Shown here in pieces: positions 36,500 to 60,507 of a DNA stretch of 64,000 nt. The DNA comes from Fimicolochytrium jonesii (Eukaryota), in the NCBI RefSeq assembly GCF_025526975.1, contig NW_026515671.1:248001-312000 (forward strand), given 5' to 3'. Within the stretch, counting starts at the first letter, position 1, and each line of letters opens with the position of its first letter. Both the position numbers and the translations under genes were made by a program. The notes beneath the pieces were generated by a model. The model was not told the origin of the DNA, did not search any database, and saw nothing but the letters and a program-made list of their open reading frames with translations.

Positions 36500-36991
36500 T
36501 GTTATGATCTCGACGACAGAGGCGGAAGCAAAGTAGAGAAGTCAGGGCGAGAGTGATAGGCGACAAGAGATTGTATTGGCGAAACAAGAAACAAGGACTA
36601 GAACAGGAGATGAGAAGAACTGATGTTGATCTGCTGGGGAGGAAGGGAATGGACGAAGAGAGGCCGGCTATTTATGGATAGGCAACCCAGCAGATCAGAG
36701 AACAACAACAACAAGAGGGGACTGGGGGGGCGCCAGCTATGCTCCTAGAGCGTGCGTGGCGAGCGTAGAGAGCATTGCTCCAGCTGCTGGCTATGGGGAA
36801 GTAGTGGGGGGTGTGGAGAAGCCGAGGGGGGATTGGCAAAATGAGAGGAGAGAGGGGGAGTGGCATTGACATTGACATTGACACTGACATTGACACTGAC
36901 ATTGACATTGACATTGGCGTTTGACATTTGGCGGTTGACATTGGCGGCTGTCAGTAGGTAAGCTTATGGTATGGGCGCGTCGTCCATAACA

Positions 36992-39900
36992 TCACCCCTC
37001 TCTTGAGCGGCGGCGGCGGCGGCGTCGAGTTTGGTGTGGCCGCACAGGAGGTGCTACGGGGACAGAGGAAGGCTTGTTGGGGTACGCGCTGTGGAAGTCC
37101 TGGAGGAGTGCGTCGGTATGGGTGAGGTGTTCCACGGGCTCCCAGGTGTTCTCAGAGTCAGGCCAGCCCTGCCATTTGACCAAGTACTGAAGGCGACGAC
37201 GATGGATGCGAGAGTCAAGGATGGCTTTGACAACCCACTCTTCTTGACCCTCAACGGTCTCTGGGGGCGCGGGTTCGGGTTCGTGTCGTTTGGGGATGGT
37301 GAAGCGGGGTTCGAGGAGCGAGACATGGAAGACATCGTGGATTTTGTACGTAGGCGGGAGCTTGAGCCGGTAGGCGACGGGATTGATTTTTTCAACGATG
37401 GGGAATGGCCCAATCTTGCGATGGTCGAGTTTCTGAGAGGGCTGGGTTGTCTGGAGGTCTTTGCGGAGGAGCCAGACGTGGTCGCCAGGCTTGAAGTGCG
37501 GTCCAGGAATTCGTTTGGCGTCGGCGTAGCGCTTCATTTGATCTTGGGCTTCCTTGAGCTCGAGGGCGAGCTGTTCATGGACTTCCCTGATTTGTTTAGC
37601 GCGGGCTTCAGCGGCAGGGTTGACGGATTCGGAGGTAGCAGAGGCCGCGAAACTGAAGCGGGGGTGGAGACCCTTGTTGGCGTAGAAGGGGGTGGTCTGG
37701 GAGGCGGACTGATGGGTGTTGTTGTAGGCGAACTCGGCGGACGACAGAAGCTGTTTCCAGTTGTCCTGTTGGTGGTTGCAAAAGCATCGGAGATACTGCT
37801 CCAGGATCTGGTTAGTGCGTTCCGTCTGGCCATCGCTCTGGGGGTGGAAGGCCGAGGAGAGGTTGGCTTTCGCCCCAAGGAGTTCGAGAAGTCGACGCCA
37901 GAACCGGGACTTAAACTGGGGTCCTCGGTCAGAGATGAAAACGTTGGGGAGGCCGTGGAGACGGATGATGTTGTGGAAGACTAGGTCGGCGGTGGATTTG
38001 GCGGATTCTGACTTGCTGCAGGCGAGAAAGTGGGCCATCTTGGTGAGGCAACAGTTGACGTTCAGGATGGAGTCGTACCCGTCCACGGGAGGCAGACCGG
38101 TGATAAAGTCCAGGGACCAAGATCCCCAAGGGCGGGTAGGGATACTGTTGGGCTGGAGTAGGCCGTATGGTTTGTGTCGACTGGATTTCGCTTGGCTACA
38201 GGTATCGCAGGACTTGACGTAGGCCTTGACGAAGCGCCACTGGCTGGGCCACCAGTAGTTGCGGGAGGCGAGTTCAAGCGTCTTGGACATCCCAAAGTGG
38301 CCGGCTAGGGGAGTATCGTGCATGTCGTGGCAGACTTCAGCTCGGAGCTCGTTGGTGGGGACAAAGACCAGGTTATTGTGCAGCAGGATCCCATCTTCAT
38401 CTGAGAACCGCTTGATACGATCTTGGGTTTCCTCAGTTCGTTGGGCGAGGGGTATCTTGAGCTTTTCGCGAATGGTCTTAGCGAGGGGAACATAGGCCTG
38501 GGCGGCCTTAATCTTGTCAAGCAGCGTGGTATCCATGGGTGTGAGGTAGGCAGCCGCGAGTTGAAGGCATTCGGGAGTCAAAATTGTGGTTGCCTGGGAG
38601 CGGAACGCTTCTTCCCCCTCGTTTAGCTCATGTTCGGAGCGTCGGGAGAGGGCATCGGCTTGGTGCTGCTGGGGACCGGGGCGATAGGTAATGACAAAGT
38701 CAAAATCCGAGAAGAATATCGACCAGCGGGCTTGGCGGCGGTTCAGGGTGCGGGTTGTCATGAAGTACTGAAGGTTTTTGTGGTCAGAGTAAACGGTGAT
38801 CTTGTGACGGGCGCCAATGAGATGGTGGCGCCACTGGGCAAAGGAGTCTTGGATGGCCAGAAGTTCCTTGTCGTAGATCTCGTAGTTGATCTCTTCGGCC
38901 GTGAATTTGCGAGAGTGGAAGGCCACGGGGTGGAGCTGATTGTCCTGGTCAGGTTGGAGGAGAACTGCGCCAAGAGCGAAGTCGGAGGCGTCAGTTTCGA
39001 CGACGAAGGGCTTCTCTGGGTCAGGGTGAGCAAGGATGGGGGCGGTGGTGAATGCTTTCTTCAGGTTCTCGAAGGCGGTGTTTGCGACGGGTGTCCAGGC
39101 GTACGGGATGTCTTTCCGGGTCAGGGCTGTGAGCGGAGTAGCGATCTTGGAATAACCTTGGATGAATCGGCGATAGAAGTTGGCAAAGCTGAGGAACCGC
39201 TGGACGCCTTTGACAGTCTTGGGAGGTTCCCAATCCGTGATGGCAGCGATCTTCTTGGGGTCCATCTGGATGCCTTTCTCGGAGATGATGAAGCCTAGGA
39301 ACTCAACGGATTCGCGGTTGAATTCGCACTTCTCTGGTTTGGCGTACAACCCATGCTGTCGGAGGCGGGACAAGACTTCGCGGACATGTTTGGGGTGATC
39401 TTCGGGGTTCTTGGAGAATATCAGGACATCGTCGAGGTAGACGACAACAAACACATCGAGAATGTCGCGGAAGATGTCGTTCATCAGGTACTGGAAGACG
39501 CCAGGAGCATTGCTGAGTCCAGAGGGCATGACATTGTATTTGAATAGGCCGTAGCGGCAGCGGAAGGCGGTCTTCCATTCATCGCCCGGGCGCATGCGTA
39601 AGAGGTTATAAGCGCCGCGGAGGTCAATCTTGGTGAGACGGCGGGCGCCACGCAAACAATCCATGATACCGTTGATCAGGGGCAGGGGGTAGCGATTCTT
39701 CACCGTGATGCTGTTCAGGCCTCGATAATCGACGCAGAGGCGGAGAGAACTGTCCTTTTTCTTCACGAATAAGACTGGCGCACCGGCAGGGGACTTTGAG
39801 GGTTTGATGAATCCTTTGGCGAGGTTTTCTTCGAGGTATTCGCAGAGTGCCTTCATTTCTGGTTCGCTGAGGCTGTAGATTGGGCCGAAAGGTGGCTGCT

Positions 39901-40915
39901 TGCCTTCTTCCAGATCGATTGGACAGTCGTAGGGCCGGTGCTCGGGGAGAGTGTCAGCATTTCTCTTTTCGAAAACGTCGGCGAAGTCTCGATACTCGGG
40001 GGGCAGGAAGTCTTTGATGTCTTTCTCGGGTGTCGGGGGGTTACTGGGGCTAGGCGAGGCCGGGAGATCGGGTTTCGCAGGGTTGGCGTAGGCGACGAAG
40101 ACCTGGTCATGCCTTGCTGCGACCTGGAAGGCTGGGGCGGAGATGAACGAGACTCGGAGCGGCGTGGGAGCCGGTTCTGGGGTGCTGGAGCGAGATACCT
40201 TGGGTACTGGAATCGACCATGTTTCGTCGACGGGGACTTCATCCTGGGGGATGCGGATCAAGGGCTCGGGGGTTCTGGCGGGTGCTGGGCTCGGGGGTGC
40301 TGGAGAGTTGTCCCAATTCGCGAATTCATGGTACAGACAGTCGCAACGGAAACCGGCCGAAAGGTTCTTGAAGTCAAGGTTAATGTCGTGGAGGCAGAGC
40401 CAGGGGAGACGAAGGAGGATTGGAGCATGGGGTGATTTGGTGACATGGAAGACGAGTTCTTCGAAGTGGTCGTGGACCCACATGCCTACTGGTCGGGTGT
40501 GATGGGTGATTGGCCCAGCAGAGCTGGGTTGACCGTCAACGAGTTCGATCGTCAGTGGACGCTGATGCGGGACTAGGGCGATGCGGTGTTTGCGGGCAAA
40601 GTCTCTGTCAATGAAGCAGGACAGGGCACCATTGTCGATCATGGCTGAGGTAGGTATCGGGGCGCGGCTGGATGATACCATGATGGTAACGGGGTAGTTG
40701 AAGGGTTCGACGGGACCCAGCGCAAGCATGGCGCAGGGGTGAATTTCGGAGTTTTCGACATGGGCAGCGGCTAGGAGGGTTGTGTCGGCTATAACGGAGT
40801 TGGGAACCAGGGGGGTGGCCTCTCCCATTGCAGGAGCTGCGAGGTTAGGAGGCCCGGGGCGGTGTGTGTTGTCCAGTCGCTGGGGCTTTACTGCGGCTGG
40901 ACTTTGGGAAAACCC
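36992..40915 (-). CDS. pol: Pol (protease, RT, RNase H, integrase, chromodomain) of copy 2, reached by a -1 frameshift from gag
   Basis: [83 protein letters not shown]. Confidence 0.93.
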   Translation of the reverse strand, partial: GFSQSPAAVKPQRLDNTHRPGPPNLAAPAMGEATPLVPNSVIADTTLLAAAHVENSEIHPCAMLALGPVEPFNYPVTIMVSSSRAPIPTSAMIDNGALSCFIDRDFARKHRIALVPHQRPLTIELVDGQPSSAGPITHHTRPVGMWVHDHFEELVFHVTKSPHAPILLRLPWLCLHDINLDFKNLSAGFRCDCLYHEFANWDNSPAPPSPAPARTPEPLIRIPQDEVPVDETWSIPVPKVSRSSTPEPAPTPLRVSFISAPAFQVAARHDQVFVAYANPAKPDLPASPSPSNPPTPEKDIKDFLPPEYRDFADVFEKRNADTLPEHRPYDCPIDLEEGKQPPFGPIYSLSEPEMKALCEYLEENLAKGFIKPSKSPAGAPVLFVKKKDSSLRLCVDYRGLNSITVKNRYPLPLINGIMDCLRGARRLTKIDLRGAYNLLRMRPGDEWKTAFRCRYGLFKYNVMPSGLSNAPGVFQYLMNDIFRDILDVFVVVYLDDVLIFSKNPEDHPKHVREVLSRLRQHGLYAKPEKCEFNRESVEFLGFIISEKGIQMDPKKIAAITDWEPPKTVKGVQRFLSFANFYRRFIQGYSKIATPLTALTRKDIPYAWTPVANTAFENLKKAFTTAPILAHPDPEKPFVVETDASDFALGAVLLQPDQDNQLHPVAFHSRKFTAEEINYEIYDKELLAIQDSFAQWRHHLIGARHKITVYSDHKNLQYFMTTRTLNRRQARWSIFFSDFDFVITYRPGPQQHQADALSRRSEHELNEGEEAFRSQATTILTPECLQLAAAYLTPMDTTLLDKIKAAQAYVPLAKTIREKLKIPLAQRTEETQDRIKRFSDEDGILLHNNLVFVPTNELRAEVCHDMHDTPLAGHFGMSKTLELASRNYWWPSQWRFVKAYVKSCDTCSQAKSSRHKPYGLLQPNSIPTRPWGSWSLDFITGLPPVDGYDSILNVNCCLTKMAHFLACSKSESAKSTADLVFHNIIRLHGLPNVFISDRGPQFKSRFWRRLLELLGAKANLSSAFHPQSDGQTERTNQILEQYLRCFCNHQQDNWKQLLSSAEFAYNNTHQSASQTTPFYANKGLHPRFSFAASATSESVNPAAEARAKQIREVHEQLALELKEAQDQMKRYADAKRIPGPHFKPGDHVWLLRKDLQTTQPSQKLDHRKIGPFPIVEKINPVAYRLKLPPTYKIHDVFHVSLLEPRFTIPKRHEPEPAPPETVEGQEEWVVKAILDSRIHRRRLQYLVKWQGWPDSENTWEPVEHLTHTDALLQDFHSAYPNKPSSVPVAPPVRPHQTRRRRRRRSREG

Positions 40916-41886
40916 TGTTTGGTGGAGGGTTCTTTGATGTCGACGTTGGCGGCACGGGTGGTGGTCTTGTTCTTGACGGGGCAGACTTTTGCAATGTGCC
41001 CCGCGCCACCGCAGTAAAGGCAGAGGTTGTTGGAAATGCGGCGTTGGCGTTCCTGAGGGCTCAGAGGGCCGCGGGGACGAGCGGCGTCAATCTGCATAGG
41101 CTCGCTGTGGTCGACAGTGGTGGTAGTAGTAAACGAGGTATGGGGAACCGGGAAGGTCTGGCGGCTTCTGTTTCGCTCCAGGCGGCGCTCAAACAGCCGG
41201 TTATCGCACTGGATAGCCTGCTCCATCACCACATCAATGGTGGCCGCAGGGGGCATCGTGAGCATCAGGTCTTTGACGTCTTCTTTGAGGCTACGGCGGA
41301 AGGTAGGCATCAGGGCCTGGTCGTTCCAGGAGACATCGCATTGTAGCTGGCGGAACTCAGCAACATACTCGGTTGCTGCACGGGTTTGGCGAAGGTTCTG
41401 GAGCTTGTTTTCAGAGGTGCGGACCGTGTCGCTCTCTCCAAAGACCGATTGCATCTGACTGATAAAACTATCGAAGTCCTGAAGGCTGTGATCTTGGCGT
41501 TCGACTAGGGGCGCCATCCAGGCTTGCACAGTGCCTGTGAGGTAGGTGCCAATAGTTTGGATCTTGATGATGTCGCTGGGGTAGCGGTCGGGCTGGAGAG
41601 CAAACATCAACCGGATGTTGTTCAACCACCCACGGAATTTGCTGCGGGTACCATCAAACTTCTTGGGCGAGCTGATTCTTGGCTCCAGAGCAGGGTTGGT
41701 GACTTGGGGACGGGTGTACGTATCGGCTTGAACCTGGGCGGCGATGCTCTGGGCAGCTTGTGCGTCGGCTTGGGCTTGCGCTAGGTTGGCCTGCAAGTTG
41801 GCGTTTTGGCTTTGCAAGGCGGCGATGGCTTGGCACATATCGTTCCATTGCTTGGGAGTGAAAGGTACGGATTCGGGTTGTGACAT
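40888..41886 (-). CDS. gag: Gag of chromovirus copy 2
   Basis: 332 aa, nearly identical to 34702-35700. Confidence 0.92.
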   Translation of the reverse strand: MSQPESVPFTPKQWNDMCQAIAALQSQNANLQANLAQAQADAQAAQSIAAQVQADTYTRPQVTNPALEPRISSPKKFDGTRSKFRGWLNNIRLMFALQPDRYPSDIIKIQTIGTYLTGTVQAWMAPLVERQDHSLQDFDSFISQMQSVFGESDTVRTSENKLQNLRQTRAATEYVAEFRQLQCDVSWNDQALMPTFRRSLKEDVKDLMLTMPPAATIDVVMEQAIQCDNRLFERRLERNRSRQTFPVPHTSFTTTTTVDHSEPMQIDAARPRGPLSPQERQRRISNNLCLYCGGAGHIAKVCPVKNKTTTRAANVDIKEPSTKQGFPKVQPQ

Positions 41887-42447
41887 GGCGAAAAAGGTTT
41901 GTCGGATGCAGGGCTGGACGGGTTCTGAACTTTGCAGTGTTGGAGCAGATCAAACTGTTATGATCTCGACAAGGGAGGCGGGAGCGAAGTAGAGAAGTCA
42001 GGGCGAGAGTGATAGGCGACAAGAGATTGTATTGGCGAAACAAGAAACAAGGACTAGAACAGGAGATGAGAAGAACTGGTGTTGATCTGCTGGGGAGGAA
42101 GGGAATGGACGAAGAGAGGCCAGCTATTTATAGATAGGCAACCCAGCAGATCAGAGAACAACAACAACAAGAGGGGACTGGGGGGGCGCCAGCTATGCTC
42201 CTAGAGCGTGCGTGGCGAGCGTAGAGAGCATTGCTACAGCTGCTGGCTATGGGGAAGTAGTGGGGGATGTGAAGAAGCCGAGGGGGGATTGGCGAAATGA
42301 GAGGAGAGAGGGGGAGTGGCATTGACATTGACATTGACACTGACATTGACACTGACATTGACATTGACATTGGCGTTTGACATTTGGCGCTTGACATTGG
42401 CGCCTGTCAGTAGGTAAGCTTATGGTATGGGCGCGTCGTCCATAACA

Positions 42448-42768
42448 CATGTGGCTCATGGGTTCACTGATGGCAACCAAACCAATACACCTCGTCCGAT
42501 TGCCTCGGCAACAAGTGCTCGTGGCGGCCGCGGAGCCAGTCGCGGTCGAGGTAGTTGTGGCGGTGGTCGTGGCGGACGATTCGCCCCTTATATCAATCCT
42601 TGAATTACGGAATTCAAACAAGACTTAGATGATATGACCTTTGGGCTCAATGCCCTTGGTACGTCATACTACCCCCCTGGAGTGAGTCGTCTCACTACAG
42701 GTCAAGTCCCCACCAACGTCAACAGCCCTTTCGTCGACGTGGACAATGACAAACTACTTATGTTCCTT
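42448..42768 (+). mobile_element. Degenerate RGG-rich gag-like remnant, possibly the continuation of the 33361 element
   Basis: Plus-frame translation ARGGRGASRGRGSCGGGRGGRFAPYINP*; same strand as the gag interrupted at 34093. Confidence 0.35.
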
Positions 42769-42769
42769 G

Positions 42770-45066
42770 TCAACGTCCAACGACTCCTTGTCCCCTTTGT
42801 AACAATTTGGTGACGGACTCGTCTCCTGCTCCCCCCCCCTTAGAGTTTGTCGTGGGGAAGTAGATGTTCAAGCCAACGCAACGCCAGCGCTCGTCGGGGA
42901 CCGGAATGCAGCGTAGGAGCCCGAAGTTGGAAGCCTGCTTGTTGCGTTGGCAGCCGGGACAAGTCCGGACGTACTGGTGGACCTCGCGCTCGAGGCGGGG
43001 CCAGTAGTATAGCGTGAGGAGTTTGGCGACGGTGCGCTGGACACCCAAGTGGCCGCTGTTGGCCAGGGAGTCATGATAGAACCTGAGGAGGGGGCCCAAA
43101 GGCCCTCGGGGACGTAGCGGCGGCCATGGTACAAAAGGAAGCCGCGGTCGTCGCGCGTGAGGCGGCGGGCAAAACCCGAGAGGGTAGAGGGGTCATCGGG
43201 GTTCGTCGCGGTGGTCTGCAGGTGGGCGAGGGTGTCCTTGCAGAACTTGTCATCGTCGAGCGCAGTGAGCCACTTGGCGTCGGTAGGGAGGCGGCCGTTG
43301 ATGTCCGGTAGAGGTGTCCCGGTGACAATGGAGAACACTTCGACCTTGATCTGACAGCTGGCGCACTTCGGGGCGTACAGCGGTGTGCGGCTGAGTATGT
43401 CGGCGATGTGATTAAACTTGCCGGGGAGGTATTCGATAGTGAAGTCGTAGTCCTGAAGGAACTCCACCCATCCGGCCTGGCGCCGGGAGAGATGAGGCTG
43501 GTTTTGGAGGTATATGAGGGATTTGTGGTCGACGAATGCACGCAATTGGTGACCGATGAGGTAATGGCGGTGAGCGCGGATCACTTTGACCAATGCGAGG
43601 AGCTCCTGTTCGTGCACAGGGTATCGGGTTTCGGCCGGAGCCATTTTGCGTGAGTAATATGAGATGAAGCGGAGGCGCAAAAGGTTACTGAGGCCCTTTT
43701 TTGTGGTGGGCAGTGGGTTCAGCATGGGAAAGTCGCCGTCCATGCCCTGACCGATCCGGCCCCCTACGGCGAAGCCTAACGCGTTGGAGAAGACGTAGGG
43801 GAACTTATCGGGGTCAAAGAACGCCAGGCAAGGGGCTTCGGCGACTCGCGCCTTGATGGTGTCGAAGGCTGCTTGTTCCTTGGCGCCCCGCTGCCACGGG
43901 CGGGTGCCGGATTGAAGGTTGGTCAGTGGGAGGGCTGTTTCAGCATAATGCGGAATGTATTCCTTGACATAGTTGACTAGCCCCATGAAGGAGAGGAAGT
44001 CAAGGGCGCTGGTGGGTTTGGGTCAAGCGTGGACAGCCTCGACCTTGGACGGGACGATGGAAAGGCCGTCTCTACCGACCATGTGCCCGCAGAACTCAAC
44101 CTGGTCCACTGCCCACTGACATTTGGACGGTTTCACGTGAAGGCGGTGAGCCGAGAGGGTCTTGAGCACTTCGGTGACATGCCCGATGTGTGAGTCCATG
44201 TCAGGGCTGAAAATAAGGATGTCATCGAGGTAAGAGATGAGGTATGAATCGTACTTGTCACCCAGGAGTTTGTTCGTGAGGCGTTGGAACGTCGCGGGCG
44301 CGTTTGTTAGCCCGAAGGATAATACGATGTACTGGAAGTGGCCGAAGCGCGTCCAGAAGGCAGTCTCCTCACTGTCTTCCTCCCGAATGAGGATGCAGTG
44401 GTAGGCATTGCGGATGTCCATAGCGGTGAAGACCTTCACGCCGACGAGGCGGTCCTGAAGCTCATTGAGGTTCGGGAGGGGCGTGGCGTCCTTATGGGTC
44501 ATCTTGTTGAGGGCCCGGTAGTCGATGCAGCAGCGGAGGCCACCGTCCTTCTTCGGGGCAAACAGTACGGGTGCCCCCCAGGGGCTCTTAGAGTGGGAGA
44601 TCCACCCGCGGGATGATAGGCGCTTGAGTTGCTGCCGTAGCTCGTCGAGTTTGTCGTTGGCCAAGTGGCGGAGTGGGAGCATGATAGGCTTGAAACCGGG
44701 CTTCAGATTGATGCTGAAGTTGTCATCACCGCGGTCCAGCGGGAGGCCGGTCTGTTTGGTGAAGAGGGTATCTGTAAACTGTTCCAACGTGGGGTGAAGA
44801 GGGTGGTCGGCAGCGACCGACGCGAGTGGATCCCGCGGGGTGGTGTCCGGAGGGGTGGCCGTGCCTTTCGGTCTGCTAGGATCGCACGTTTCTTCCCCTC
44901 GACCGTGCGAACGAAGTTAGCCTCGGCTTCGGCGACGTCCGCGAGGGCGACGTCTGTGGCCAGGTCCACCTCCGTGTCCGTGCGTGAGACCCATGCGGTA
45001 TAGACCTCGGCGGTCTTATCCCTCTTGATCGTCGGTTGAATTGTTTGGCCATGAGGAAACCCTCCT
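42770..45066 (-). mobile_element. Degenerate Ty3/gypsy pol (RT, RNase H, integrase N-terminus)
   Basis: KKDGGLRCCIDYRALN, FGLTNAPATFQ, YLDD, YPVHEQELLA, HLGVQRT..YYWP..CPGCQ; stops, frameshifts and loss of the integrase core. Confidence 0.88.
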
Positions 45067-45117
45067 CATTTAAGGCCACAAGCTTGGGGTAGAAACGGCG
45101 GGGGCGAGGGCCCGTAT

Positions 45118-47006
45118 TGTTGTGTTATTACTGGGAAGTAGCCGATGAAGAGTAGAACCATTACTGGTCTTAATGTATTACTTGTTGTATGTCTATATAC
45201 TCCGGACTCTGGCGTCGGGGTCTTTGTTTCTCTGACCGTGACCAGACTGCTTACGCGATGACAGCAACTGACAGGATAGTTCGCGTCTCTGCACAACACT
45301 CCCCCGACTCGAGCTGTCCAAAAGTCAGCCTGTCCAACTCCCGCTCTCAACTCCATTCCAATCAACAACACACTCTCTCTTTCCGACACCCAAATCCAAC
45401 CAATCCATCAAGATGCCGAACGGTGGTCCAACTTGCCCGATCTGTATGGTCAACCCTGCCATCTACAACGGGCCATGTGGGCACCTCTTTTGCCGTACGT
45501 GCATCGTCCAGGAGATCCTCTCTCATTTGCACGCCCCACGCTGTGGCGTTTGTTGGTGAGTGGTGAGAGGAGGTAATTCAACTGATAAACGTGTATTGAT
45601 TGCCTCTCTTAGAGCCCCGTGGCCAGTTTACTTAACCCGGGACCGGCACAATCGTCAGTGCTGCATGTGCGGCACTAATCCCATCTCGTGTCGCATGGTG
45701 ACCTCGTGTGGCAACTGCACCATATGCAACGGATGCTCCATTTATCTTGTTCGGTGTCACCCGCCGAATCAAGTTCGGTGTCCGTCGTGTCATGTAGCTT
45801 TTGACGCTCCGCTGCTCACTTGGCTCCGAAGAGCCATTATTCAACAATACGGCGTGTAGTGTAGACTTCACTGTCGTAGCCCACATAGTTCCCGTAAATA
45901 AACAAACACCGGTCTCAGAAGCGCTTTCGTTTGGATGTCCGCTATCATTTCTTTTGTTGAGATATACTGGAAATCTAGCTTGCGTTCAGCTACAAGTTCC
46001 CGAATAAAGTGGTGTCGAACGTCAACGTGCTTCGTCCGCTGATGATCCACGGGATTGTTCGCAAGTTTGATGGCGGCTTGGTTATCTTTGTAAATCAGTA
46101 TGGGCTTGTCGGATGCGCCCAGGATTTCCTGTTTCATCCGAGAAAGCCACAGCGCTTCTTTGGCTGCTTCTCCGAGCGCTACATATTCCGCTTCCGCCGT
46201 AGATACTGTAACAGCCGCTTGCCGTTGTGACTTCCAGGATATTGCTCCCCCGTTTAAGGTGAACATGTACCCTGAAACCGAACGCCCAGTCTCTTTGCAT
46301 TTTGCGAACTCCGCATCACTGTATCCCCGGAGTTTGTTATCTGACTCGTTATTGTATTGTAGGATAAGCTCTTCCGTTTTGGCAACGTAACTGAAAACCC
46401 GCTTAGCCGCCTTCATATGTGTCTGTGACGGCTTAGCCAGAAACTGGGATAACTTAGATATCGCGAAAGCGATATCAGGGCGAGTTCCAATCATAAGGTA
46501 CATCAATGACCCTATCATCGATTGATACGTTGCAACGTCTGCCGGTTTCTCATCCGCAGCTATAATCTCAAGCTTCACATTGGGATCCAGCGGCGTGTCG
46601 TGCGGTTGCATCTGCTCCAACCCGAACTTCCGTAGTATATCACTGATGTAATTCTGTTGTCCAATAGTGAGGGTTCGTTGGATGCGATTTTGTCTGACTT
46701 CTATTCCGAGGAGGTAAGAGAGCTCCCCCATGTCTTCCATTTCGAAGCGTAATTTCAACCCTTCTTTAATTGCTTCCCGTTCCACTTTGCTCGTTGAAAG
46801 AATTGTCAAATCATCAACGTAGACGGCGATGATGATAAAACCTCAGCCAATGCGCTTTATGTAAAGAGCATTGTCTAGTTTGGAAACGTTGAAGCCTTTC
46901 TCTCGTAGGTAAGCGTCCAACACCTTATTCCACAACCGAGGTGACTGTTTCAGTCCGTACAGAGAACGTTTGAGTTTAACCGTTGTCCCCTCTGGTAGGC
47001 GAAGGT
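45118..47006 (-). mobile_element. Ty1/copia remnant A: 3' LTR 45118-45298, PPT, cargo region, RT/RNase H 45868-47006
   Basis: LTR TGTTGTG..CACAACA followed by CTCCCCC (PPT on minus); SLYGLKQSPR, YVDD, GTRPDI, YSDA, STAEAEY, RTKHVDVRHHF. Confidence 0.9.
45413..45859 (+). pseudogene. Two-exon tandem RING-finger gene (exons 45413-45555, 45613-45859) antisense within copia A; splice-junction codon now reads TGA
   Basis: Exon 1 CPIC..PCGHLFCRTC..RCGVC is C3HC4; exon 2 CCMC..SCGNCTICNGC..RCPSC is RING-like; 57-nt GTGAGT..CTGAT..TTAG intron. Confidence 0.78.
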
Positions 47007-50003
47007 TGAAACAAGAATTCGTCGCTGCCAAGATATTAGCTGCGCCAAACTACGAAGAAGACACACCCCTGTTTATTATTACGACCGACGCTACACCCAT
47101 TTCATGGGGAGCGATACTCTCCCAAGTTGATCCCAAAGGAAGAGAAAGACCGATACAATTTGAAAGTTGATTGTTTACTGAACAGCAACGAAATACCTAC
47201 CCGATAGTCAAACTCGAATCACTCGGAGCCTACAAAGGAGTTCGCAAATTACGAACTTACGTTTGGGGCAGACGTTTCGAGCTCAGAATTGACGCCAAAC
47301 CCTTGATTCAACTACTACAAAAACCCGAATTCCCCGACAGTACCATCACGCGATGGGTAGCACAGTTAATGCTATTCGACTTTGAAATCAAACATATCAA
47401 AGGAGGAAAGAACCCCGCGGACGGACTTTCTTGAAAACCCTGAGCAGACGATGATACCGACACCGAAAACGAAGACTCCGACGATTCGGAAATGCACGTT
47501 TTACGAGTCAACTCAGCAACGACCGAATGGAAAAGTGATTTGAATGAAATTCCAATACCTGACCCATATGACCGTACCTACGCGATACAAGTATCCCAGC
47601 CAACGAAGAAAAATCCGAAACCGATGTACCCGATACGCTCTACGATCATCTTTTCTTACGAAATGGAAGGCTGAAACCACCCCTGCGAATCATCGAAAAT
47701 GAACAGGATCAAGAAGAAATTATTCGATTCATGCACGAGAGCAAGGAAGGCGGAGGACATCGAGGCATCCTCGCTACATTTCAGAAGATACGACAACGCT
47801 ATTACTGGCCAAGACTATACAAAGAAGTGAAGGCCTACGTTCAATCCTGCAACAACTGCCAATTCAGAGACCCGCGACGTGAATTTGAACCGCTTTATAT
47901 CGAAATCCGAACGACACGACCCTTCCAGAAATGCGGACTAGACTTCGTATTTATCACAAAAGGAACAAACGCAAATGAAGGAGGGATGATTTTACGAGAT
48001 GACGCAACCGCTTACCCTGAAGGACGAATGATCAGAGGCAAGCCAACTGCACACAAGATTGCTGCTTTCTTATATGAAGAAGTATTCTGCCGACACGGAC
48101 CGATTGAAAACCTAGTATCCGATGGTGGACCTGAAAACGTCAACGAAATCGTACGACATCTTACCGAACGATACGGTGTCAAACACCAAATCACAACTGC
48201 ATATCACCCGCAAGCGAATGGATTAGTAGAAAGAGGACATGCTCCGATCATCGAAAGTCTTTTTTGAACCGCACCGACTCCGAGAGAATGGCCAACCGTA
48301 TTCCCTGCTGCATTATGGGCAGATCGAGTTACCACGAAACGAACGACACAGTTTACACCCTTCTATATGATTTATGGAAGAGACGCCGTACTACCTATTG
48401 AACTCACATACGAAACATGGATGATAGTACCGAATCTTTAACAACCCATGACAACCGAGACACTCCTACAACACCGCATTAAACAATTCTGATACAGAGA
48501 TAAAGATCTGAGGCTAGCGACAGAGCGACTAATCGCAAGCCAAAAAGCGAACAAGAAGTATTGGGAGAAACGACACCGAATCAGAAATCGACCTTTTGAA
48601 CCCGGCGATATCGTTCTCCTGCACAACATGAAACTATTGACTCAACAAACCGGCAAGACCGACAACAATGGTTTGGACCGTACAGAATTACCAAATCCAA
48701 CGACAATGGCTCGTATTATATCGAAGAATTAGACCGGACACCGATACGCAAACCTGTAGCCGGAGACCGATTGAAGATATTTCGAACTCGAACCCAGACA
48801 CAACCAATAGTCGAAGACAATACAGAAGATGAAGAAGAAACAGACGAAGAAGACAACATTACGGACGAGAATTGATGAGCACATCAATATTTGACAAAAG
48901 GAAAGATGTAGTAGTGCGCTTCGAACTGCGCATGAAATCGATAATATTTCGACGCCAATTATACGCCTAGAATCTTCAACAAGCGAATGAAATCACCTTT
49001 ATACGACAACGTAAAAATACCGTCAAAAGTTCCAACAATAAATCGACACACTCGCGTTCCCGACACTCTGACGTTTACCAAATACAACCACGTTTACCGA
49101 AACCTTGCTTCACAACAACGTTTTTTCCTCGGATACGACTGACATGCGAGAGATGTAGGCATAGGAGAGGAACACATGAAAGCGCCCCCAACCCAACTCT
49201 CAACCAACCAGAAGCTCACACGACGCCCGAAATGCTGAAGAAACCAACTGCGAAACGAGAAAACCAATTTCCGGTGGCCGTATACGCCGAACGTTGCAGA
49301 AAACCCCAAGAAAAGATTAGCAATAAGACTGTATCAGCGCCAAAATTGCGAATGGAAAAAGGAAAAACTACGTAGACCGCCGCAGGAAAAGAGAAAAAGA
49401 CCCGATGTAGCTAAATCCTCTAGAGACGACTAGTAGAGAGTTTGGACTTCGACAAACTGCAGTAGCCTAGAAAGATCCATATAAAAACCCACCTGTTTTC
49501 CCCAGACCTTTGTACGATAGGCAAGACTCAGATCTGTGTACGCAGAACACAGATCCCGATCAACAACAGAGCTTTCTACTTCTCTACTCCTAACGACTTC
49601 TTCCAGTTTCAGATAGACTTTCAAGGCGCGCTCACAGACTCTGAGAGCATAGACAAGACGACCCTGAGGGTCGCGACTTGTACTTTGCTGACGTCGCCGA
49701 GGACTTGATAGTTCAGGAATCTCGGAAGAAGAGCTGAGAGTGAGATTGGATAACCCCGTCGTATTGTTTCGCAGTCAAACCTGCAGATATTTCCGAGTTC
49801 GTATTTCGTACCCGTACCCGTAATTCCCGACCCCGTTTAAGAAGAAGGACTCCTTTCAAAGCACCTGGATATTAAGGTTGCAAGACGACGCTCTCGCCTG
49901 AGATCTCTTCTTGTGCTATTGAGAGACCGGCAGCTTATCTTTCCCAACACCCAGCCGTACCCATCGATTCGACAGACCCTCGCTTCTGCCGGCCACCACC
50001 ACA
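47007..50003 (+). mobile_element. Degenerate Ty3/gypsy 3' half (RNase H, integrase) with PPT and a 3' LTR of about 1.1 kb (48907-50003)
   Basis: TTDA..GAILSQ, GGGHRG..RYYWP..CNNCQ, SDGGPE, YHPQANGLVERGH; AAAAGGAAAGA PPT, then TGTAGTAGTG...CACCACCACA. Confidence 0.85.
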
Positions 50004-51890
50004 GCGTCTTACGACCCGGAGCAAGATTTATAGTGTTCACGGATGCATCGGTTTTTGCAATAGGCGGATGGCTTGCCCAGCCGGCGAATCCATCAGAGCA
50101 TTACCCATCACCGTTGCCTACCTCAGTAAACGGATTTAAGAATCTGCCACCGTTAAAGCCGATAGCTTTCTTTGGGCGGAAGATGCAACCCGCTGAAACA
50201 CGTTACCCCTTGCACAAACAAGAGCTATTAGCTCTGGTTAGCATATGCAAGGCAAACAGGCATTACTTGCAGGATCGGACAAATGACCGCCCGTTTCGCG
50301 CGTTCACCGATCACGCTAGTTTGGTCTGGCTGCAGACACAGCCCTTCCTGAGCCATTGCCAAGCATGATGGGTTGAATTCCTGCAACAATCCAAATTTGA
50401 TATTGAATATCAACCTGGTCGTTGGAACACCGTCGCGGATGTGTTGAGTCGTAATCCTTATTACGCTCCTTGCTGCGCCGAGTGTAACAAGCAAGTGGAA
50501 ATCGCTGCGGCCTTGGGGATGTCCGTCGAGTATATTCCTTTGGGGAATGTTACGCTTGAGGATTGGATACGAACCTTGGAGGCTGATGAGTACTTCGCTT
50601 TGCGGAAAGAGGCGTTGTCACAGCCAAAGGAACGACAGTCAACATTCGATCGCCGTTTTTCGATCGATGACTATGGTTGTTTACTGTACCACGATAAGTT
50701 CTATGTGCCAGCTGCTTTACGAGGAACTGTATTGCAGGCGTACCACAACTCGTTGCTATCTGGCTCGCATACGGGGGTACAAGGTACATTGGGCAAACTC
50801 CTACGTGAGTTTTACTGGCCCGATATGGACGCAGATGTGAGAGGGTACATCAAGACTTGTGGGTCTTGCCAAAGGTTCAAGTCGCTGAACAGTAAGTGCG
50901 TTGGCTTACTTCGTTCGCTCCCAGTTCCCGACCGACGTTGGCACACAATGGGTATGGACCCTGTCTGGATGCCAATAACACGGTCATTGGGGGGGAAGGT
51001 GCAGAGTGATGCGTTTTACGACAGTTTTATTGTCTTCATCGACTATCTGTCAGGGTGCGCATACTTTATACCTGCGGCATCCACGATAACTGCCGAGGAG
51101 TTGGCCCATCTTTACTTCCGTGAAATATGGCGCCATACAGGTACTGCAGCTCTGATCGTCGGAGATCGAGATCCCCGCTACCTGGCAGATTTCTGGAAGG
51201 TGTTTCAATCGTTGTTGGGCTCAAAGCAGAGCTTGAGCACGGCACGACCCCAACAGATGGACGGAAAGGTCGAACGGTGTATCTCTATCTTGAAGAAGAT
51301 GATTAAACCGTACCTTAATGTAACGGGAGACGATTGGGTTGACAAACTACCGATGTTGGAGTTTGCCTACAACCGTACGCAGAACAGCACTGGATACTGC
51401 CCTTTCGAGGTTGATTTGGGTAGAATTCCGCAGGCGCCGATGCATTGGCAAGTTGACACAAAGGTGTTGCAACGTATGGACGATATCTCGATCCCATTCT
51501 TGCATAAGTCACAATGTGAGCTCATCAAACAGATGGAGAAGCGTGCTGAGGCATACCGATCCATTGAACTCATAGTGCAGCAGAAACTGCAGGAAGCCCA
51601 GGACAAACAAGCGAAGTATCACGATCGTGGACGTCGTGTACAGAGCTTTCGTCCAGGAGATAAAGTCCTGTTGAACAGCGATGGGATAACGATCCCTGCT
51701 TTCAATAAGAAGCCGCTCAAGTTTAGACAGAGCTGGCTAGGACCCTTCATTGTGAAGAGGGAAGGACCACACCCGGAAACATACGAGTTAGAGCTGCCAG
51801 CTTTGATGGGCGCTTTATACCCGGTCTTCCATACGGATATCTTTAAGCCTTGGCACAAGCCGACTTCAGATCCGCACGCTGCAGGGGGGG
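50004..51890 (+). mobile_element. Degenerate Ty3/gypsy RNase H plus integrase, same family as 42770-45066
   Basis: VFTDAS..IGGWLAQ, AETRYPLHKQELLA, HTGVQGT..FYWP..CGSCQ, DRDPRY, DGKVER, WLGPF, PVFH. Confidence 0.88.
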
Positions 51891-53545
51891 ATTCTGAGCT
51901 CCCTGACGCATCTCCCAACCCACAATCTGACACTGATCAATGGGCAGAGGCCCCAGAGGACCTAGACGACCAGGAAGACCAGGAAGATGACGACTTGGTG
52001 CACTACGGACGCATCACATGCTCCCAGAGCACTCGAATACGCCAAAGCAACCTTGCCTATGCCCTGGCCACCGAAGTACTGCACACAGAGCCCAAAACCC
52101 TCAAGCAAGCTCTAAACTCCAACGACTCAGCCAAGTGGAAGGAAGCCATGGAGGCTGAATACGTATCCCTTGTCAAGAACGGCACCTGGGAGCTCTGTCC
52201 GGCACCCAAAGATAGCAACCTTGTTGGATGCAAGTGGATTCACAAGATCAAGACGAATGCTGAAGGCAGTATCGAACGCTACCAGGCCAGACTATCCGCC
52301 CAAGGCTTCTCACAAGAATAGGGAGTTGACTAGAACGAAACATTCGCACCAGTGGCCAAGTTCGACACCATTCGGCTACTCTTGTTGTGGGGAGCAGCAC
52401 AGGACCTCGAAATGGACCAAATGGACGTGTCCACCGCATTCCTGAACCCGACACTCAGTGAGGAGATCTATATGAAGCAGCCACCGGGCTACATCAAGCC
52501 AGGAGAAGAGCATCTTGTGCTTAAACTCAAGAAGACACTCTATGGTCTCAAACAAGCCCCCAGGGAGTGGTACATCGAAATCCATGGCACTCTCGTTGAG
52601 AAAGGCTTCACTCGTCTTGATTCAGACCATTGCGTCTATATCAGGTTCTTTGAGGGCTGGCTACTCATCCTGATCCTCTATATGGACGATCTCATACTTA
52701 TGAGGCACAAGAGACTCGATCTTGACAGCTTCAAGGCCAAGGAACTTCAAAAGGCGTACGAAATGCGTGATCTAGGTGCCCTGCACTACTTCCTGGGTCT
52801 TTTAGTCCCTCGAGACCGAGCCAAACGACTCCTGACGCTCAACCAGACTGGGTACATCGAAAAATGTCTTGAAACATACGGGATGACCGATTGCAAGCCT
52901 GTATCAACTCCCAGCGTCGTGGGAAGCCCTCTCACCAAGGAAATGACACCTCAAACGCCTGAAGAGACTGCAGAGATGCAGAACAAGCCCTATCGAGCGA
53001 TTGTAGGCAGTCTGATCTCTGCAATGTTCGGCACAAGACCAGACATAGCCCAAGCAGTTGGAGCTGTGAGCTAGTTCTTAGCCAATCCAGGCAAAGGACA
53101 TTGGAAAGCTGCCAAACGCATTCTGGCGTATCTCAGGACGACCAAACACTTCCAACTTCGACTGGGAGCCGTCCAAGAAACCCCCAAACTCGTGGGATGG
53201 TCAGACTCAGACTGAGGAGGCTGCCCAGACACTCGAAGATCGACCACAGGATACCTCTTCACCTTCTGCGGTCCAGTAAGCTGGAAATCACGCACACAAC
53301 GCACTACAGCACTCCCCTCCACCGAAGGCGAATACATGGCACTCACAGACGCCTGTAAAGAAGCCATGTGGCTCAGATCTCTACTCAGAGAACTGAGCAC
53401 GCACCAAGACCAGACAGGACTCGTTCAAGGCCCCACAGTCATCTGGGAAGACAACCAAGGAGCTATGACACTCGCCACAAACCCAGTTCACCATGCACGA
53501 ACCAAGCACATCGACATCTGAAACCACGTCATTCGTGAACAATTG
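51890..53545 (+). mobile_element. Degenerate Ty1/copia RT plus RNase H (different family from copia A and B)
   Basis: EPKTLKQAL, KNGTWEL, QMDVSTAFL, LYGLKQAPR, YMDD, TRPDIA, STEGEY, HARTKHIDI; in-frame stops. Confidence 0.9.
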
Positions 53546-53929
53546 ATCAGGTTGTATTAGCTAGATTGGGTTTTATTGAGCTGGTGGAAGCCTGTAGCAA
53601 CTTCCGCGGGCTCCGCGGACTTGGCAGACGTCCATGGGGGCATTAGCAGGCTACACAGACTTGGCAAAACCTTACCAACCTTAACTGCGGCACTCAGAGA
53701 CGCCTTGGGCGTTCTGAAGGGGTCGCAGAGGGTGCTTTGGACGCCCCAGCACATAGCTAAATCCCCAAGAAAGAAGCCCCAGATTTGTGTAAAAGGCAGA
53801 CCTGTTGCCCGTCCCCTCTCTTCACGTTATCCTCTTCAATACACCACTTTCTATCGCACTACTCTAGCCACACTACCGTCTTCTACATCACAACACTGCC
53901 CTTTGGGCAGCTTCGTCCCTCAGTCATCG

Positions 53930-55628
53930 GCGAACCAGTCTTAGTGACCTCTCAGATACACCTATATCAGCTAAGGTTTCAATACTTCCGACTTCAAAGA
54001 TATCAAATCCGATCGTTGGCCATCTTCCTACACGGTATGGGAAGAGGTTGGAGAAATCCATATGGATGATGACCAGGTTTGAATCGTCAACAGGATTTGC
54101 AAGTTCCAACATATCTGGGAACGTCGCAGCATGCGGGAGGCCAGTAGTATTGTGTAAGAATCCTTGCAAGAGTCTTATTAAAACTGAGATGTCCTCCGGT
54201 GGTGAGATCATCATGGAATTGCCGTGAGATTGTTGCGAATATCTTCAGGAACGTATAAACATCCTTCAGGTTCCATTCCATTTTCGAACGTATAGCAAAG
54301 TTGTCTAGAAGGTTTCTTGTGTTGAGGCTTCCGAGAAACTTCGTCTAGGTAATCCAAATGGGTCTTCGCGTACCGCAATTTTCCATTCTTCCTCTTGGTA
54401 GGTAGGTGAGCTTTGTCTGTTGTAGCGTTGAAGGAAGCTTCACCGGCAAGCGCGTTGCTGATCTGCGTATGCATGTCAAGGCGAGATTGACAATCTATAC
54501 ACCGAGGCACATAGATTGGATTGCGAGAAAGCATATCGGCTATGATTCCACCATCCAGGTAGATACTGGATGTCGAAGTCATACTCTTGTAGCTTCTCCA
54601 CCCATTTGGCTGGTCTTCTGCTCAAGTGGGGTTGCGTTTGGATGAATTCGAGTCCCTTGTGGTCGCTGAAACTTCGGAAGTAATGACCAATGAGATATGG
54701 TCTATTGGCGAGCAACATCTTCACAAGAGCTAGGAGCTCTTGTTTGTGCATAGGATATTGAGTTTCTGCATCCTTCATCTTCCTTGAGGAAATAATTTGT
54801 TAAACCGAGGAAGCTCTGAACTCCTTTGGTTGATCTTAGAGTAGGCCAATCCTTAATAGCTTGGATCTTTGAGGGCGCAATGCGAACACCATGTCCTCCG
54901 ACAATATGTCCTCACCATTCGATTTCTTCCTTGGCCCATACACACTTTGAATGTTTGATGAAAAGGGCATGTTCTTCGAGCTTCTTCAGGATACAATCAA
55001 CTTGTTCCCGATGTTCGGCAAGAGTTTTTGAAAAAATGAGGACAATGTCCAAATAAGTAGGAAGGAATTCGTCATAGTCTTTATGAAAGATCTTATTCAT
55101 AAGTCGTTGAAATGCGGCAGGTGCATTGGTTAGCCCGAATGGCATAACCAAGTGTTCGAAGTTTCCCAATCGAGTTTGTATTGCTGTTTTCTCTTGATCT
55201 TGTCTGCCTATAAGAAGAGAATGGTATGCTTCTCGAATGTCGGTAAGCGTAAACCATTCACAACCTTGATTCCGATCCCTCATCTCACAAATATTGGGTA
55301 AAGGAGTACGATCTTTCTTGGTGATGGAGTTGAGACCTAGATAGTCCCAACAAATACGTAGTTTGCCATCTTCCTTCTTGGCAAAAACGACACTAGCTCT
55401 CCATGGACTTGAGGAGTGTTGTATCCATCCTTTTTCGAGCATAACGGAGATTTGCTTCCTGAGCTCAGCGAGCTCTTCCTTGTTCATGTGACAGAGAGGT
55501 TGCCAAATGGGTTCAGCACCTTCAGTGAGTTCTATCTTGAAGTTGTCTTTTCCACGATCAGGAGGTATACCTTCTGGTTCCTTGAAGAGCGTATCGACGT
55601 ATTTATCTAGGATATCCTTAAAGAACAC
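53930..55628 (-). mobile_element. Degenerate Ty3/gypsy pol (RT, RNase H, integrase N-terminus)
   Basis: KEDGKLRICWDY, MPFGLTNAPAAFQ, YPMHKQELLA, GGHLSFNKT..YYWP..CKSC; frameshifts and deletions. Confidence 0.85.
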
Positions 55629-56199
55629 TTGTCTTGACGGCTTGAGGACGCGATTGAAAGCAGATGCAGCCGACGATGACTTCCTCGATGTCGTACATCA
55701 AATGAAGCAGAACCGATTCGATCTGGCTCCTATGATCACCACCGACACGAAACTTACCACGCAGGCAGGAATTGCCAAAGTTATCAAGCACGCTTCACTC
55801 TCCAGAAGAGACATTGCTCAAGGAATGTTGGAGATCCTTTGTAACGCTGTCATAAAGTCTGGCACCGATGTAGTCAAAAGATGCACGATTTATCGCACAC
55901 CAGTGCTATTGGAGACCAGGGCTATTTGGAAGTCAAATAGCACCAACTTTGCGATGCACCTATGCGCTGGAATATCACACCAGTGCTATTACAGGACCAG
56001 CAGTACGTCGTTGTATGTACATCTGTTTCGAAAGCACAGGACTGGGCAATTCAATTCAAGAACATTACCAAAGCCAATCGCTTGAGGGCAGCCTGGATTT
56101 GGGCACATCTCCCGTCGTCACCCGGCCTTGCTAAGTTACGTCCCAGATCTTGAGTTCAGCATTGCACTCAGCACCCCATCCTCCGACACCCTGTCTGAC

Positions 56200-57129: not shown

Positions 57130-60100
57130 TCTTGTGGTTATAGGAAGTAGCCGATGAAGAGTAGAACCATTACTGTATTACTATTAGTTATATCTATTAC
57201 ATTCTTAGGTGTCGGGCACTTCACTCCTAGCCGTCTGCGCAGACTGCTGAAGCGAAGGCTTACTAATGACGGCGTTTGACAGGATTAGGGATAGGGTTAG
57301 GGATAGCTCACGTCTCTGCACAACACTCCCCCGACGCGAAATGCCCAAACAACCCTAAAATCCGGCTGTCCACATCGCCGACGACTGCATACCCCTCTTC
57401 TTCTTCCATATCCGACCCCATCCAACCGGTCCAGATTCATTTCCCCTCTCATTGGGCAACTTCGACCACATCCGCTCTTGTTTACGGCTCTCTTTGTCTC
57501 AATCCGCATAGTGCCCGGAGGTGAACAAAGGCTGGTTTCGGGAGGGCTTTCGTCTGGATGTCGGCGACCATTTCTTTTGTTGATATATACTGAATATCTA
57601 CTTTGTTTTCAGCCACGAGTTCCCGAATGAAATGGTGTCAAAGGTCGATGTGTTTTGTCCTCTGATGATCTACCGGATTATTGGCGAGTTTTATGGCGGC
57701 TTGGTTGTCCTCATAGATCAGGACGGGCTGGGGCTCGTCAGGGACCCCCAGGATTTCCCTTTTCAACCGAGAGAGTCAGATCGCTTCCTTAGCCGCCTCT
57801 CCAAGCGCCACATATTCTGCTTCCGCTGTGGATACCGTCATGTTTTTCTGCCGTTGGGATTTCCAGGATAAAGCTCCCCCATTCAAGGTGAACGTATAGC
57901 CCGAAACCGACCGTCTCGTCTCTTCACACTTCGCGAAATCCGCATCACTGTATGCCCGCAGCTCGTTATCTGATTCGCCATATTGCAGGACAAGCGTTTT
58001 GGTCTTGGCAATATAACTGAAAACCCGCTTGACGGCTTTCATATGAGTTTGCGAGGGTTTGGCTAAGTACTGAGAGTGTTTGGATACGGCGAATGCGATG
58101 TCTGGTCGGGTTCCAACCAGTAAGTACATCAATGACCCGATCATTGACTGGTACGTTTTGACGTCTGCCGGCTTCTCCTCCTCCGCAGTCATAACTTCTA
58201 GTTTCACATTTGGGTCCAGCGGAGTGTCGTGCGGTTGCATCTGTTCCAGCCCGAATTTTCGCAGGATGTCGCTTATATACTTCTGCTGTCCAATAGTGAG
58301 GGTCCGCTGGGTGCGATTTCGTCTCACTTCTATTCCTAGGAGGTGGGAGAGCTCCCCCATGTCCTCCATTTCGAAGCGCAATTTCAGCTCTTCTTTAATA
58401 GCGTCCCGTTCGGATTTACTGGTTGAAAGGATGGTCAAATCATCGACGTAGACGGCAATGATAATGAAACCTCGTCCAATGCGCTTTATATAAAGAGCAT
58501 AGTCCAGTTTTGACACATTGAAGCCCTTCTCCCGGAGGTAAGCGTCCAAGACCTTATTCCATAACCGGGGCGACTGTTTAAGGCCGTATAGGGAACGTTT
58601 GAGTTGAACAACGGTACCGTCGGGCAGGCGAAGGTATATTACGGTGTCGAGGTTCCCATTCAGGAAGGCGGTTTTCACGTCCATCTGATGGATTTCTAGG
58701 TCGTGTGCCGCTGCAATGGCCAACAACATCCGCAACGTGTTGAATTTTACGACGGGCGCAAACGTTTCATGATAATCTATCCCCTCTCTCTGCGTGAAAC
58801 CCCTTGCGACTAGACGAGCTTTGAACTTCTTTATGGTGTTGTCAGGGTTGCGCTTTACTTTGAATACCCACTTAGAATCTACTGTGTGTCCAGAGTGGTT
58901 TTGACCGGGATTTTGGGCGCTCTGGTCATCGGGTTTTGGACCAGAATTCTGGGCGTCCCCAGAAATTCGGTGGTCAACCCATCGACCGGGTGCTTCCCAG
59001 GTTCCATTCTTTGCATGGGATGCAAGTTCCTCTTCCATAGCGGCTTGCCATTTGCGTGCGTATGGAGATTTCATAGCGGCTTTCAGTGTGGAGGGTTCGT
59101 CTGTGTCTACCGTCGCTGCTAAGAGCTCTGCGCCGGGTCCTGATCCGGGTTCAGCTCCAAGGTACTGACTCCCGTCGTCTTCGACCCCCAGAAATTCCGA
59201 CAACGCTACTGCGTCCTTCACAAATTCATAGGGTTCCCAAGTGGGGTCGTCAAACCCTACCCACTTAACAAGGTATTCCTTCTCCCCCAAATCTCCATCC
59301 CCACGCCACAAAAGCATCTTTTCAACGGCGTATTCAGCATCTGAGTTTGATTCAGGGATGGATTCGCTACGACTGTTGTTTTCTTTGAAAGTGACGTCCC
59401 GGGATTCAAAGATCTCCAACGTTTCTTCATCAATGAGTCGGTATGTGCCATGTTTGGTGGCATGGTAGCCAAGAAGCCGCAACGGGCCTAGCGCCCATGC
59501 CGAAAGCTTACTTCTCCTCTTTTGTTTAGGGATGTGAAGGAAGGCTTCACTCCACGGTGTCCGCAAATTCGAGATATCTGCGGGTCGTCCGTACCATCTA
59601 TGGTATGGGGTCGTTCCGGTTGCACTGGCCGGCGTCCGCTGTCTAAGATAATTGACCAATACAGCCAATTCATTCCATAGATTTTCTGGGACATTACTAA
59701 TCCACATTATGGCCCGAATTTGGTCCATAATAGTCCGGTTGAAGCGCTCCGCAATCCCGTTTTGTTGGGAAGAGTATGGCTGCGTCGGAACCAGCGAGAT
59801 CCCTGCTTCCTTTAATTCATCCAGCATCTCGGTCGACATGTATTCCCCCCCGTTGTCGCAGCGCAACTCTTTGATCTTCCCATTACAATGGCGCTCTGCA
59901 AACGCTTTAAACTCTTTCCACTTCTGGTGCACCTCGCTCTTATTTTTCAAGATGTAGATTACTGACCATCTCGAAAACTCGTCAATAAACGTGAGGATGT
60001 ACCGCTTTCCATTAAAAGATTTCGTTTTAGGACCGACGTCCAATACATCTGAGTGGATCCTGTCCAATAATTTGGTTGCAGGCCGGGGGTTTTGCCCAGT

Positions 60101-60507
60101 GAAGGGCTTCCGTGTTTGTTTTCCTTTTTTACAGCCCACACAGAGTGGGGGTTCGGCGTTTTTGGTGTTGAGTTCGAAGTTGTATTCTAAACTCGCAGCT
60201 TGAAGCGCTTTGGATCTGATGTGTCCAAAACGCTGGTGCCATAGTTTATTGACGTTGCGGTCTTGGGCTTTCCCTCAAGTGCCAGAATAAACGCTTCCGG
60301 CTCTGCTTCAATATACCCTTTCAGGAACGGAAGTCGTCCATTATGGGTCACTCGCAACACGGATGTCCCATCTCGTCTGATTTCCGCATGTCCTTTTCGG
60401 AGTTGGATGTCGTAGCCCTCATCAACCAAAGGTGCCGTACTGCATAGATTTTGGCGCGCATTGGGCACATAGAGCACGTTTCAAAGGGTAATGTGTTTTT
60501 CCGGCTC
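57130..60507 (-). mobile_element. Ty1/copia remnant B, related to copia A: 3' LTR 57130-57325; pol with pre-integrase, integrase, chromodomain, RT and RNase H; 5' end cut by chromovirus copy 3
   Basis: WHQRFGH, CKKGK, HSD, IDEFSR, RCDNGGEY, QNGIAERFN, ARLVARGFTQ, QMDVKTAFL, YVDD, YSDAD; LTR shares GGAAGTAGCCGATGAAGAGTAGAACCATTACTG with the 45118 LTR. Confidence 0.92.

Follow-up and report, generated by a model that had tools for sequence, protein, structure and literature searches.

A spliced antisense gene for a predicted RING-type E3 ligase in a Ty1/copia retrotransposon of the chytrid Fimicolochytrium jonesii

Genes lying antisense to gag-pol have been described in LTR retrotransposons, and the closest counterparts of the gene reported here are found in plant elements with an aORF-3R, among them maize Grande with its gene23, rice RIRE2, Retand and PvRetro13 (accessible portions of PMC7264820 and PMC11963269). 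In these elements the frame has the same position and orientation as at our locus and is conserved among elements, and for Grande antisense transcription from its own promoter has been demonstrated, according to the same portions of the two articles. Our gene, too, lies between pol and the 3' LTR, antisense to gag-pol. As described there, however, most of the plant elements belong to Ty3/gypsy, their 3' regions run to kilobases and their domains are TRP28 or SMC-like, whereas ours is a 450-bp two-exon gene with a recognisable E3-type domain in a copia element. Among fungi, Boty/BcGypsy1 of Botrytis has an antisense gene, brtn (Zhao et al. 2011, as cited in the accessible parts of PMC7264820, PMC8365987 and PMC4227169). 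Like ours, it is an LTR element of a fungus with an additional gene on the antisense strand, and it has a chromodomain, as our lineage also appears to have. It differs in being gypsy rather than copia, and its accessible descriptions, on which this comparison is based, mention no RING. Reportedly, brtn contains an intron. REM1 of Chlamydomonas, also an LTR element, is said to have an opposite-strand ORF with a PHD zinc finger and a chromodomain; it differs in having a PHD reader rather than a RING, and in superfamily and host. The arthropod CopiaMBD elements, as far as the accessible part of PMC6673714 describes them, are copia elements with an acquired chromatin-related domain by the integrase, comparable to the chromodomain-like segment of the sister element copia B and the Powellomyces hirtus protein P0122 (see below), but their MBD lies within the sense pol ORF and there is no separate antisense gene.

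Such genes are easily missed, since neither of our exons was found among annotated proteins and a plant survey counted only extra ORFs of at least 250 codons (accessible text of PMC6317226). A literature search, whose coverage stopped short of subscription journals and Repbase, found no copia element with a spliced antisense RING gene. The term RING has no occurrence in the accessible text of PMC11963269 or in the main text of PMC6317226, nor does it appear in the supplementary text of the latter, whose full extra-ORF domain table may lie outside that text. Antisense extra ORFs in gypsy elements were already known; what appears to be new, and is in our judgement a real feature, is an assayable domain together with an intron, in a copia element.

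The element and its antisense gene

The window, by which we mean the whole stretch of 64,000 nucleotides analysed (contig NW_026515671.1, positions 248,001 to 312,000), holds intron-bearing host genes over roughly its first 33 kb (1-33 kb), after which LTR elements lie nested. The element of interest, copia A, lies on the minus strand and comprises a 3' LTR (45118..45298, 181 bp, TGTTG...CAACA), a PPT (45299..45305, GGGGGAG, the same in A, in B and in the homologous locus L018) and a pol fragment with the end of RT and RNase H (45868..47006). It has no gag, integrase or 5' LTR, its pol has one internal stop (46843-46845), and it is truncated at about 47006, where unrelated gypsy-like sequence takes over. 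Its RT matches RVT_2 (Pfam, E 1.9e-15), which supports assignment to Ty1/copia; the PPT adjoins a TG...CA LTR, and the order integrase-RT-RNase H is seen in copia B, where rve precedes RVT_2, the integrase having been lost from A. The best pol match is a P. hirtus copia, at 50%. Copia A is a dead element, and its copy of the RING gene is a pseudogene.

The surroundings hold other elements. From 42320 to 60500, truncated gypsy and copia pieces are densely nested and abut without LTRs; they contain CGA/TGG-to-TGA stops and may form a heterochromatic cluster. A young chromodomain gypsy family, several copies of which are 94-100% identical, occupies 34087-42447 and 60497-64000; its LTRs contain hexamer repeats (GACATT/GACACT), one copy is inverted and one lies inside copia B. 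On the plus strand, at 50369-52321, a single open frame joins a gypsy-type integrase to a copia RT that follows it, probably the deletion junction of two elements, and the copia to which this RT belongs (copia C) is far from A and B (37% to A).

A sequence-only reading had placed an intron-containing gene, antisense to copia A, between its pol and its PPT and 3' LTR, and the gene is there with every coordinate as first read. On the plus strand, a leader (45306..45412) precedes the ATG at 45413; exon 1 (45413..45555, 143 nt) encodes a C3HC4 RING (C8, C11, C22, H24, C27, C30, C44, C47), and a 57-nt intron of phase 2, antisense to the genomic RNA (45556..45612), separates it from exon 2 (45613..45859, 247 nt), which encodes a RING-like domain with eight conserved Cys and a conserved C-terminal Trp/Arg segment. 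The tail-to-tail arrangement with pol is likewise as described, 8 nt separating the RING stop (45857-45859) from the pol stop (45868-45870). The spliced product spans 129 codons, of which codon 48 is a TG|A stop, and the window copy would yield RING1 alone (47 aa).

The intron has the signals first proposed for it (GTGAGT...CTGAT...TTAG), which host introns at 1-33 kb also use (11 pattern matches, one confirmed by frame joining). Since its length is a multiple of three and it contains one in-frame stop, splicing is unprovable from the window alone, but it is settled by the intron of L018, which lies at the same site and in the same phase, directly after the last RING cysteine, and is 61 nt long, not a multiple of three, and contains stops. 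Alternative splice sites that would open the window frame were rejected, as the RING ligands were lost or the donors poor. The codon split by the intron is Arg in L018 and a stop in the window. The suggested CpG-type change (CGA to TGA) fits what is seen at the internal pol stops of A and B, three in all: two face CGA in the other copy and the third faces TGG. The RING segment is not bounded by a TSD or TIR, there being no direct repeat of at least 5 nt, and one 5-nt inverted match, in flanks of about 50 nt.

That exon 1 encodes a canonical RING was confirmed: the eight ligands have RING spacing and the match exceeds the Pfam cut-offs of both zf-C3HC4 (E 1.3e-5, 25.4 bits, cut-off 21) and zf-RING_UBOX (28.5 bits, cut-off 25.2). 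All eight ligands are invariant between the window copy and L018, although RING1 of L018 scores under the Pfam thresholds (zf-RING_2 E 5e-4, B-box E 1.5e-4). A RING1 profile matched 25 PDB sequences at E<=0.01, including RNF4 (E 6.6e-7), TRAF6, COP1 and an equine herpesvirus RING, and exon 1 shares the C3HC4 ligand pattern of RNF4, TRAF6 and COP1 and matches their structures. The top match, 4ap4, is a 133-aa chain in which the RNF4 RING occurs twice, and in size and layout it resembles our two-finger product. In both RING1 copies a hydrophobic residue (Ile/Val) precedes the second Cys, and both are without the Pro that is usual between the last two Cys of the RING consensus. The junction Arg, right after the last Cys, occupies what we take to be the "linchpin" position of active RING E3s. 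Among 1.84 billion representatives a single sequence matched at E<=0.001, the RING of a fish DTX3L (E 9e-5), a generic RING match that points to no close host donor.

Of the tandem RING originally claimed, the first finger stood, as did eight invariant Cys in exon 2, but the spacing of the latter is not that of a RING and exon 2 has no match in Pfam up to E 1. In the window the invariant Cys are spaced 2-6-8-2-2-14-2, the third being out of RING register, whereas in a canonical RING ligand 3 stands one to three residues ahead of ligand 4; the VRCPxC motif and the Trp/Arg tail are kept between the window and L018. Matches of this domain in PDB were weak and mixed (RIP E 0.026, NOT4 RING E 0.052). 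Since a comparison of the profiles of domains 1 and 2 was not significant (probability 0.8), internal duplication is not supported. Domain 2 is RING-like, not a member of the RING family. The AlphaFold2 models, with mean pLDDT of 38 and 31, were too low for use.

A distant homologue and a sister element without the gene

The choice of loci rested on a motif in the element's RNase H and made no use of the RING; it gave 49 metagenome and two genome loci. In one of these 51, L018, both exons of the RING gene were matched (45% identity and E 1.4e-8 for exon 1, 32% and E 5e-4 for exon 2). As in copia A, the L018 gene lies between pol and PPT on the strand opposite to pol, and once spliced it is open over 126 aa. 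The gene is therefore not confined to one locus, and its cysteine pattern and splice position are kept. Between the two products 48 of 119 residues are identical (score 202, against a mean of 7 and a maximum of 59 in 2000 shuffles). Identity by codon position is 0.49/0.66/0.26, with third positions saturated, and 33 of the 48 identical residues are encoded by different codons, which argues for selection at the protein level. Only two copies are known, and dS between them is saturated. The gene, at 40% identity, has diverged to an extent consistent with pol of copia A and L018 (RT 51%, RNase H 59% identical), as co-descent predicts. Thus the proposal of a heritable antisense cargo with a real intron is supported by position, orientation, intron and cysteines shared with a distant element, and we consider it very probable that the element inherits the gene as cargo and that selection maintains it.

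The pol of L018 is 82% identical to P. hirtus TPX55991 and has a frameshift. At L018 1064-1213 the pol frame is without its usual stop and enters antisense exon 2 for about 45 codons, either through a lost stop or as a true overlap. The ATG of the L018 gene is only 28 nt from the LTR edge (114 nt in copia A), a distance that could hardly accommodate a promoter outside the LTR. At L018 1556-1790, and also in L017 and L045, the LTR is directly followed by a PBS-like GGTTATG(A/G)GCCCAG, presumably of the half-tRNA-Met type, and by more coding sequence, an order that we infer to reflect tandem copies, circles or collapsed multi-copy repeats.

The other 50 loci are not all informative negatives, since many are distant, plant-like or short and a loose PPT pattern was present in 19. 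In L017, the closest outsider, only 12 nt lie between pol and PPT. In L012 and L042 a PHD-like finger lies on the opposite strand, downstream of a copia fragment and about 3.6 kb past pol; these fingers, which likely belong to a host gene, were not retained as candidate cargo. L050 holds a copia pol nearly identical to that of L025 in a bacterial MAG contig, likely a eukaryotic contamination of the bacterial bin. Protein searches by word index, restricted to near lengths, gave no match for either the read-through gene or the exon-2 alignment; a RING query of metagenome_contigs gave 153 pattern matches, none confirmed, and scans of viral_contigs gave no loci.

Copia B, also on the minus strand, has a 3' LTR at 57130..57325, a PPT and short 3' region without the RING gene at 57326..57481, and a pol with integrase, RT and RNase H at 57482..60496 that is 82% identical in amino acids to that of A; it is interrupted at 60497 by a gypsy LTR. 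The absence of the gene from B and its short 3' region, both noted from the start, hold true (156 nt from PPT to pol stop). The similarity that had been seen between B and A next to the PPT amounts to a 26-nt stretch before the ATG, at a similar distance from the PPT, but is marginal, as 40 of 1000 shuffles reach its score. The two LTRs share their PPT-side end, and a block of 33 bp (45134-45166 and 57143-57175) is 100% identical between them while the rest has diverged; it is likely a functional cis element, and it was not found in the LTR of L018.

From a quick tree of 57 rows, in which 17 of 50 loci with a match were left out (coverage below 200 aa), 18 rows were chosen for the final tree. 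There A and B are sisters (support 100/100) and L018 groups with two P. hirtus proteins (100/100); the clade of all five is not firm (86/79), although a tree placing B outside it was rejected (p-AU 7e-5). Two of the three clade members with a readable 3' region have the gene, A and L018, and B does not. The objection that other copies might lack the gene, raised together with the original claim, therefore applies to the sister of A and not to L018. Since the gene is in both A and L018, one early gain followed by loss in B is the simplest account; alternatively, the 3' module may have been exchanged between families. As a sister with such similar pol is without the gene, the gene may be dispensable.

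A chromodomain-like segment follows the integrase of copia B (59210..59329, minus strand; Pfam Chromo E 3.2e-5, 24.2 bits, cut-off 25.1), and another, also below the cut-off, is at residues 2-32 of P0122 (E 4.6e-5, 23.7 bits). A and L018 are without the region that would hold it, and we infer that chromodomain and RING gene occurred together in one element. In the plant survey, chromodomains were found only in gypsy chromoviruses (accessible text of PMC6317226).

What the gene might do for the element

The likely role of the product is that of an accessory E3 ligase, predicted from its sequence, which would be expressed from the LTR. We give a probability of roughly 0.55 to the reading that the gene is an inherited accessory gene for a predicted ubiquitin ligase, with which the element would counter its control by a host silencing or restriction factor. 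Lying inside the PPT, the gene would be copied with every transposition, and the intron would survive since the genomic RNA would hold only its reverse complement, unspliced; an antisense promoter in the 3' LTR would drive a separate mRNA. RING1 would bind an E2, domain 2 might serve as a dimer-like partner or as a substrate-binding finger, and the substrate would be a host silencing or restriction protein, which is the least supported step. The product, a predicted ligase, differs from RNF4-type E3s in that its domain 2 is non-canonical and it has no known substrate module. Put in its full form, that a chytrid chromodomain copia lineage encodes a spliced antisense two-finger E3 degrading such a host factor, the proposal is tentative, and possible rather than probable.

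The same anatomy would be expected of a ligase that limits its own element, either by ubiquitinating its Gag or integrase or through an antisense RNA that damps the element, as a form of copy-number control. With an AATAAA at about 45897, the antisense RNA would extend across the end of pol and might pair into dsRNA, as suggested for antisense ORFs in the accessible part of PMC7264820, and a loss in B would then be harmless or helpful. Long retention of such a gene, however, requires selection at the level of the host or the family, and the AATAAA is not kept in B, and we regard self-limitation as unlikely. A zinc-finger protein inherited in the same way might instead lack ligase activity and serve as a scaffold, or bind nucleic acid or chromatin and cooperate with the chromodomain integrase during targeting or nuclear import. 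Such a protein would suit a second domain that is no canonical RING and a C-terminal segment in which basic residues and Trp are kept; known antisense ORF products are nuclear or DNA-binding, according to the accessible parts of PMC7264820 and PMC11963269. It would leave unexplained why all eight RING1 ligands, the Ile/Val before the second Cys and, in L018, the Arg after the last Cys are present, and why the PDB matches of RING1 are to E3 RINGs, and we accord this a low probability as well.

Explanations without benefit to the element fare worse. A passenger, i.e. a host gene captured at the DNA level, captured twice, or inserted independently, would account for an intron suggestive of cellular origin, for its absence from B and for a count of two copies only, and its host donor could be absent from databases. 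Yet the gene has the same site, orientation and intron in elements only 51-59% alike, with silent sites saturated and the L018 frame open, and there are neither flanking direct repeats nor a donor-like match, which makes a passenger improbable. A chance cysteine-rich frame, or merely a non-coding antisense RNA, would be compatible with the broken frame and the 3n intron of the window copy, but it is largely refuted by the Pfam match above cut-off and the protein-level conservation in L018, and hardly deserves credence.

Implications for antisense genes of LTR elements

If the predicted ligase does act against host control, the gene would parallel, in a retrotransposon, the RING proteins with which viruses counter host defence, and would be an antisense accessory ORF to which an enzymatic function can be assigned. 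Herpesvirus ICP0 is a viral RING E3. The chytrid copia lineage also appears to carry a chromodomain, a domain confined to gypsy chromoviruses in the plant survey (PMC6317226, accessible text). Of antisense extra ORFs in LTR retrotransposons it has been written that "their functions are yet unknown" (PMC7264820, accessible part), and these functions are still puzzling largely since the products resemble nothing assayable. Here, an E3-type RING and an intact natural copy in L018 make activity and substrates directly testable, and the case shows that an LTR element can keep a spliceosomal intron, provided that it is antisense, while pol diverges by about 50%.
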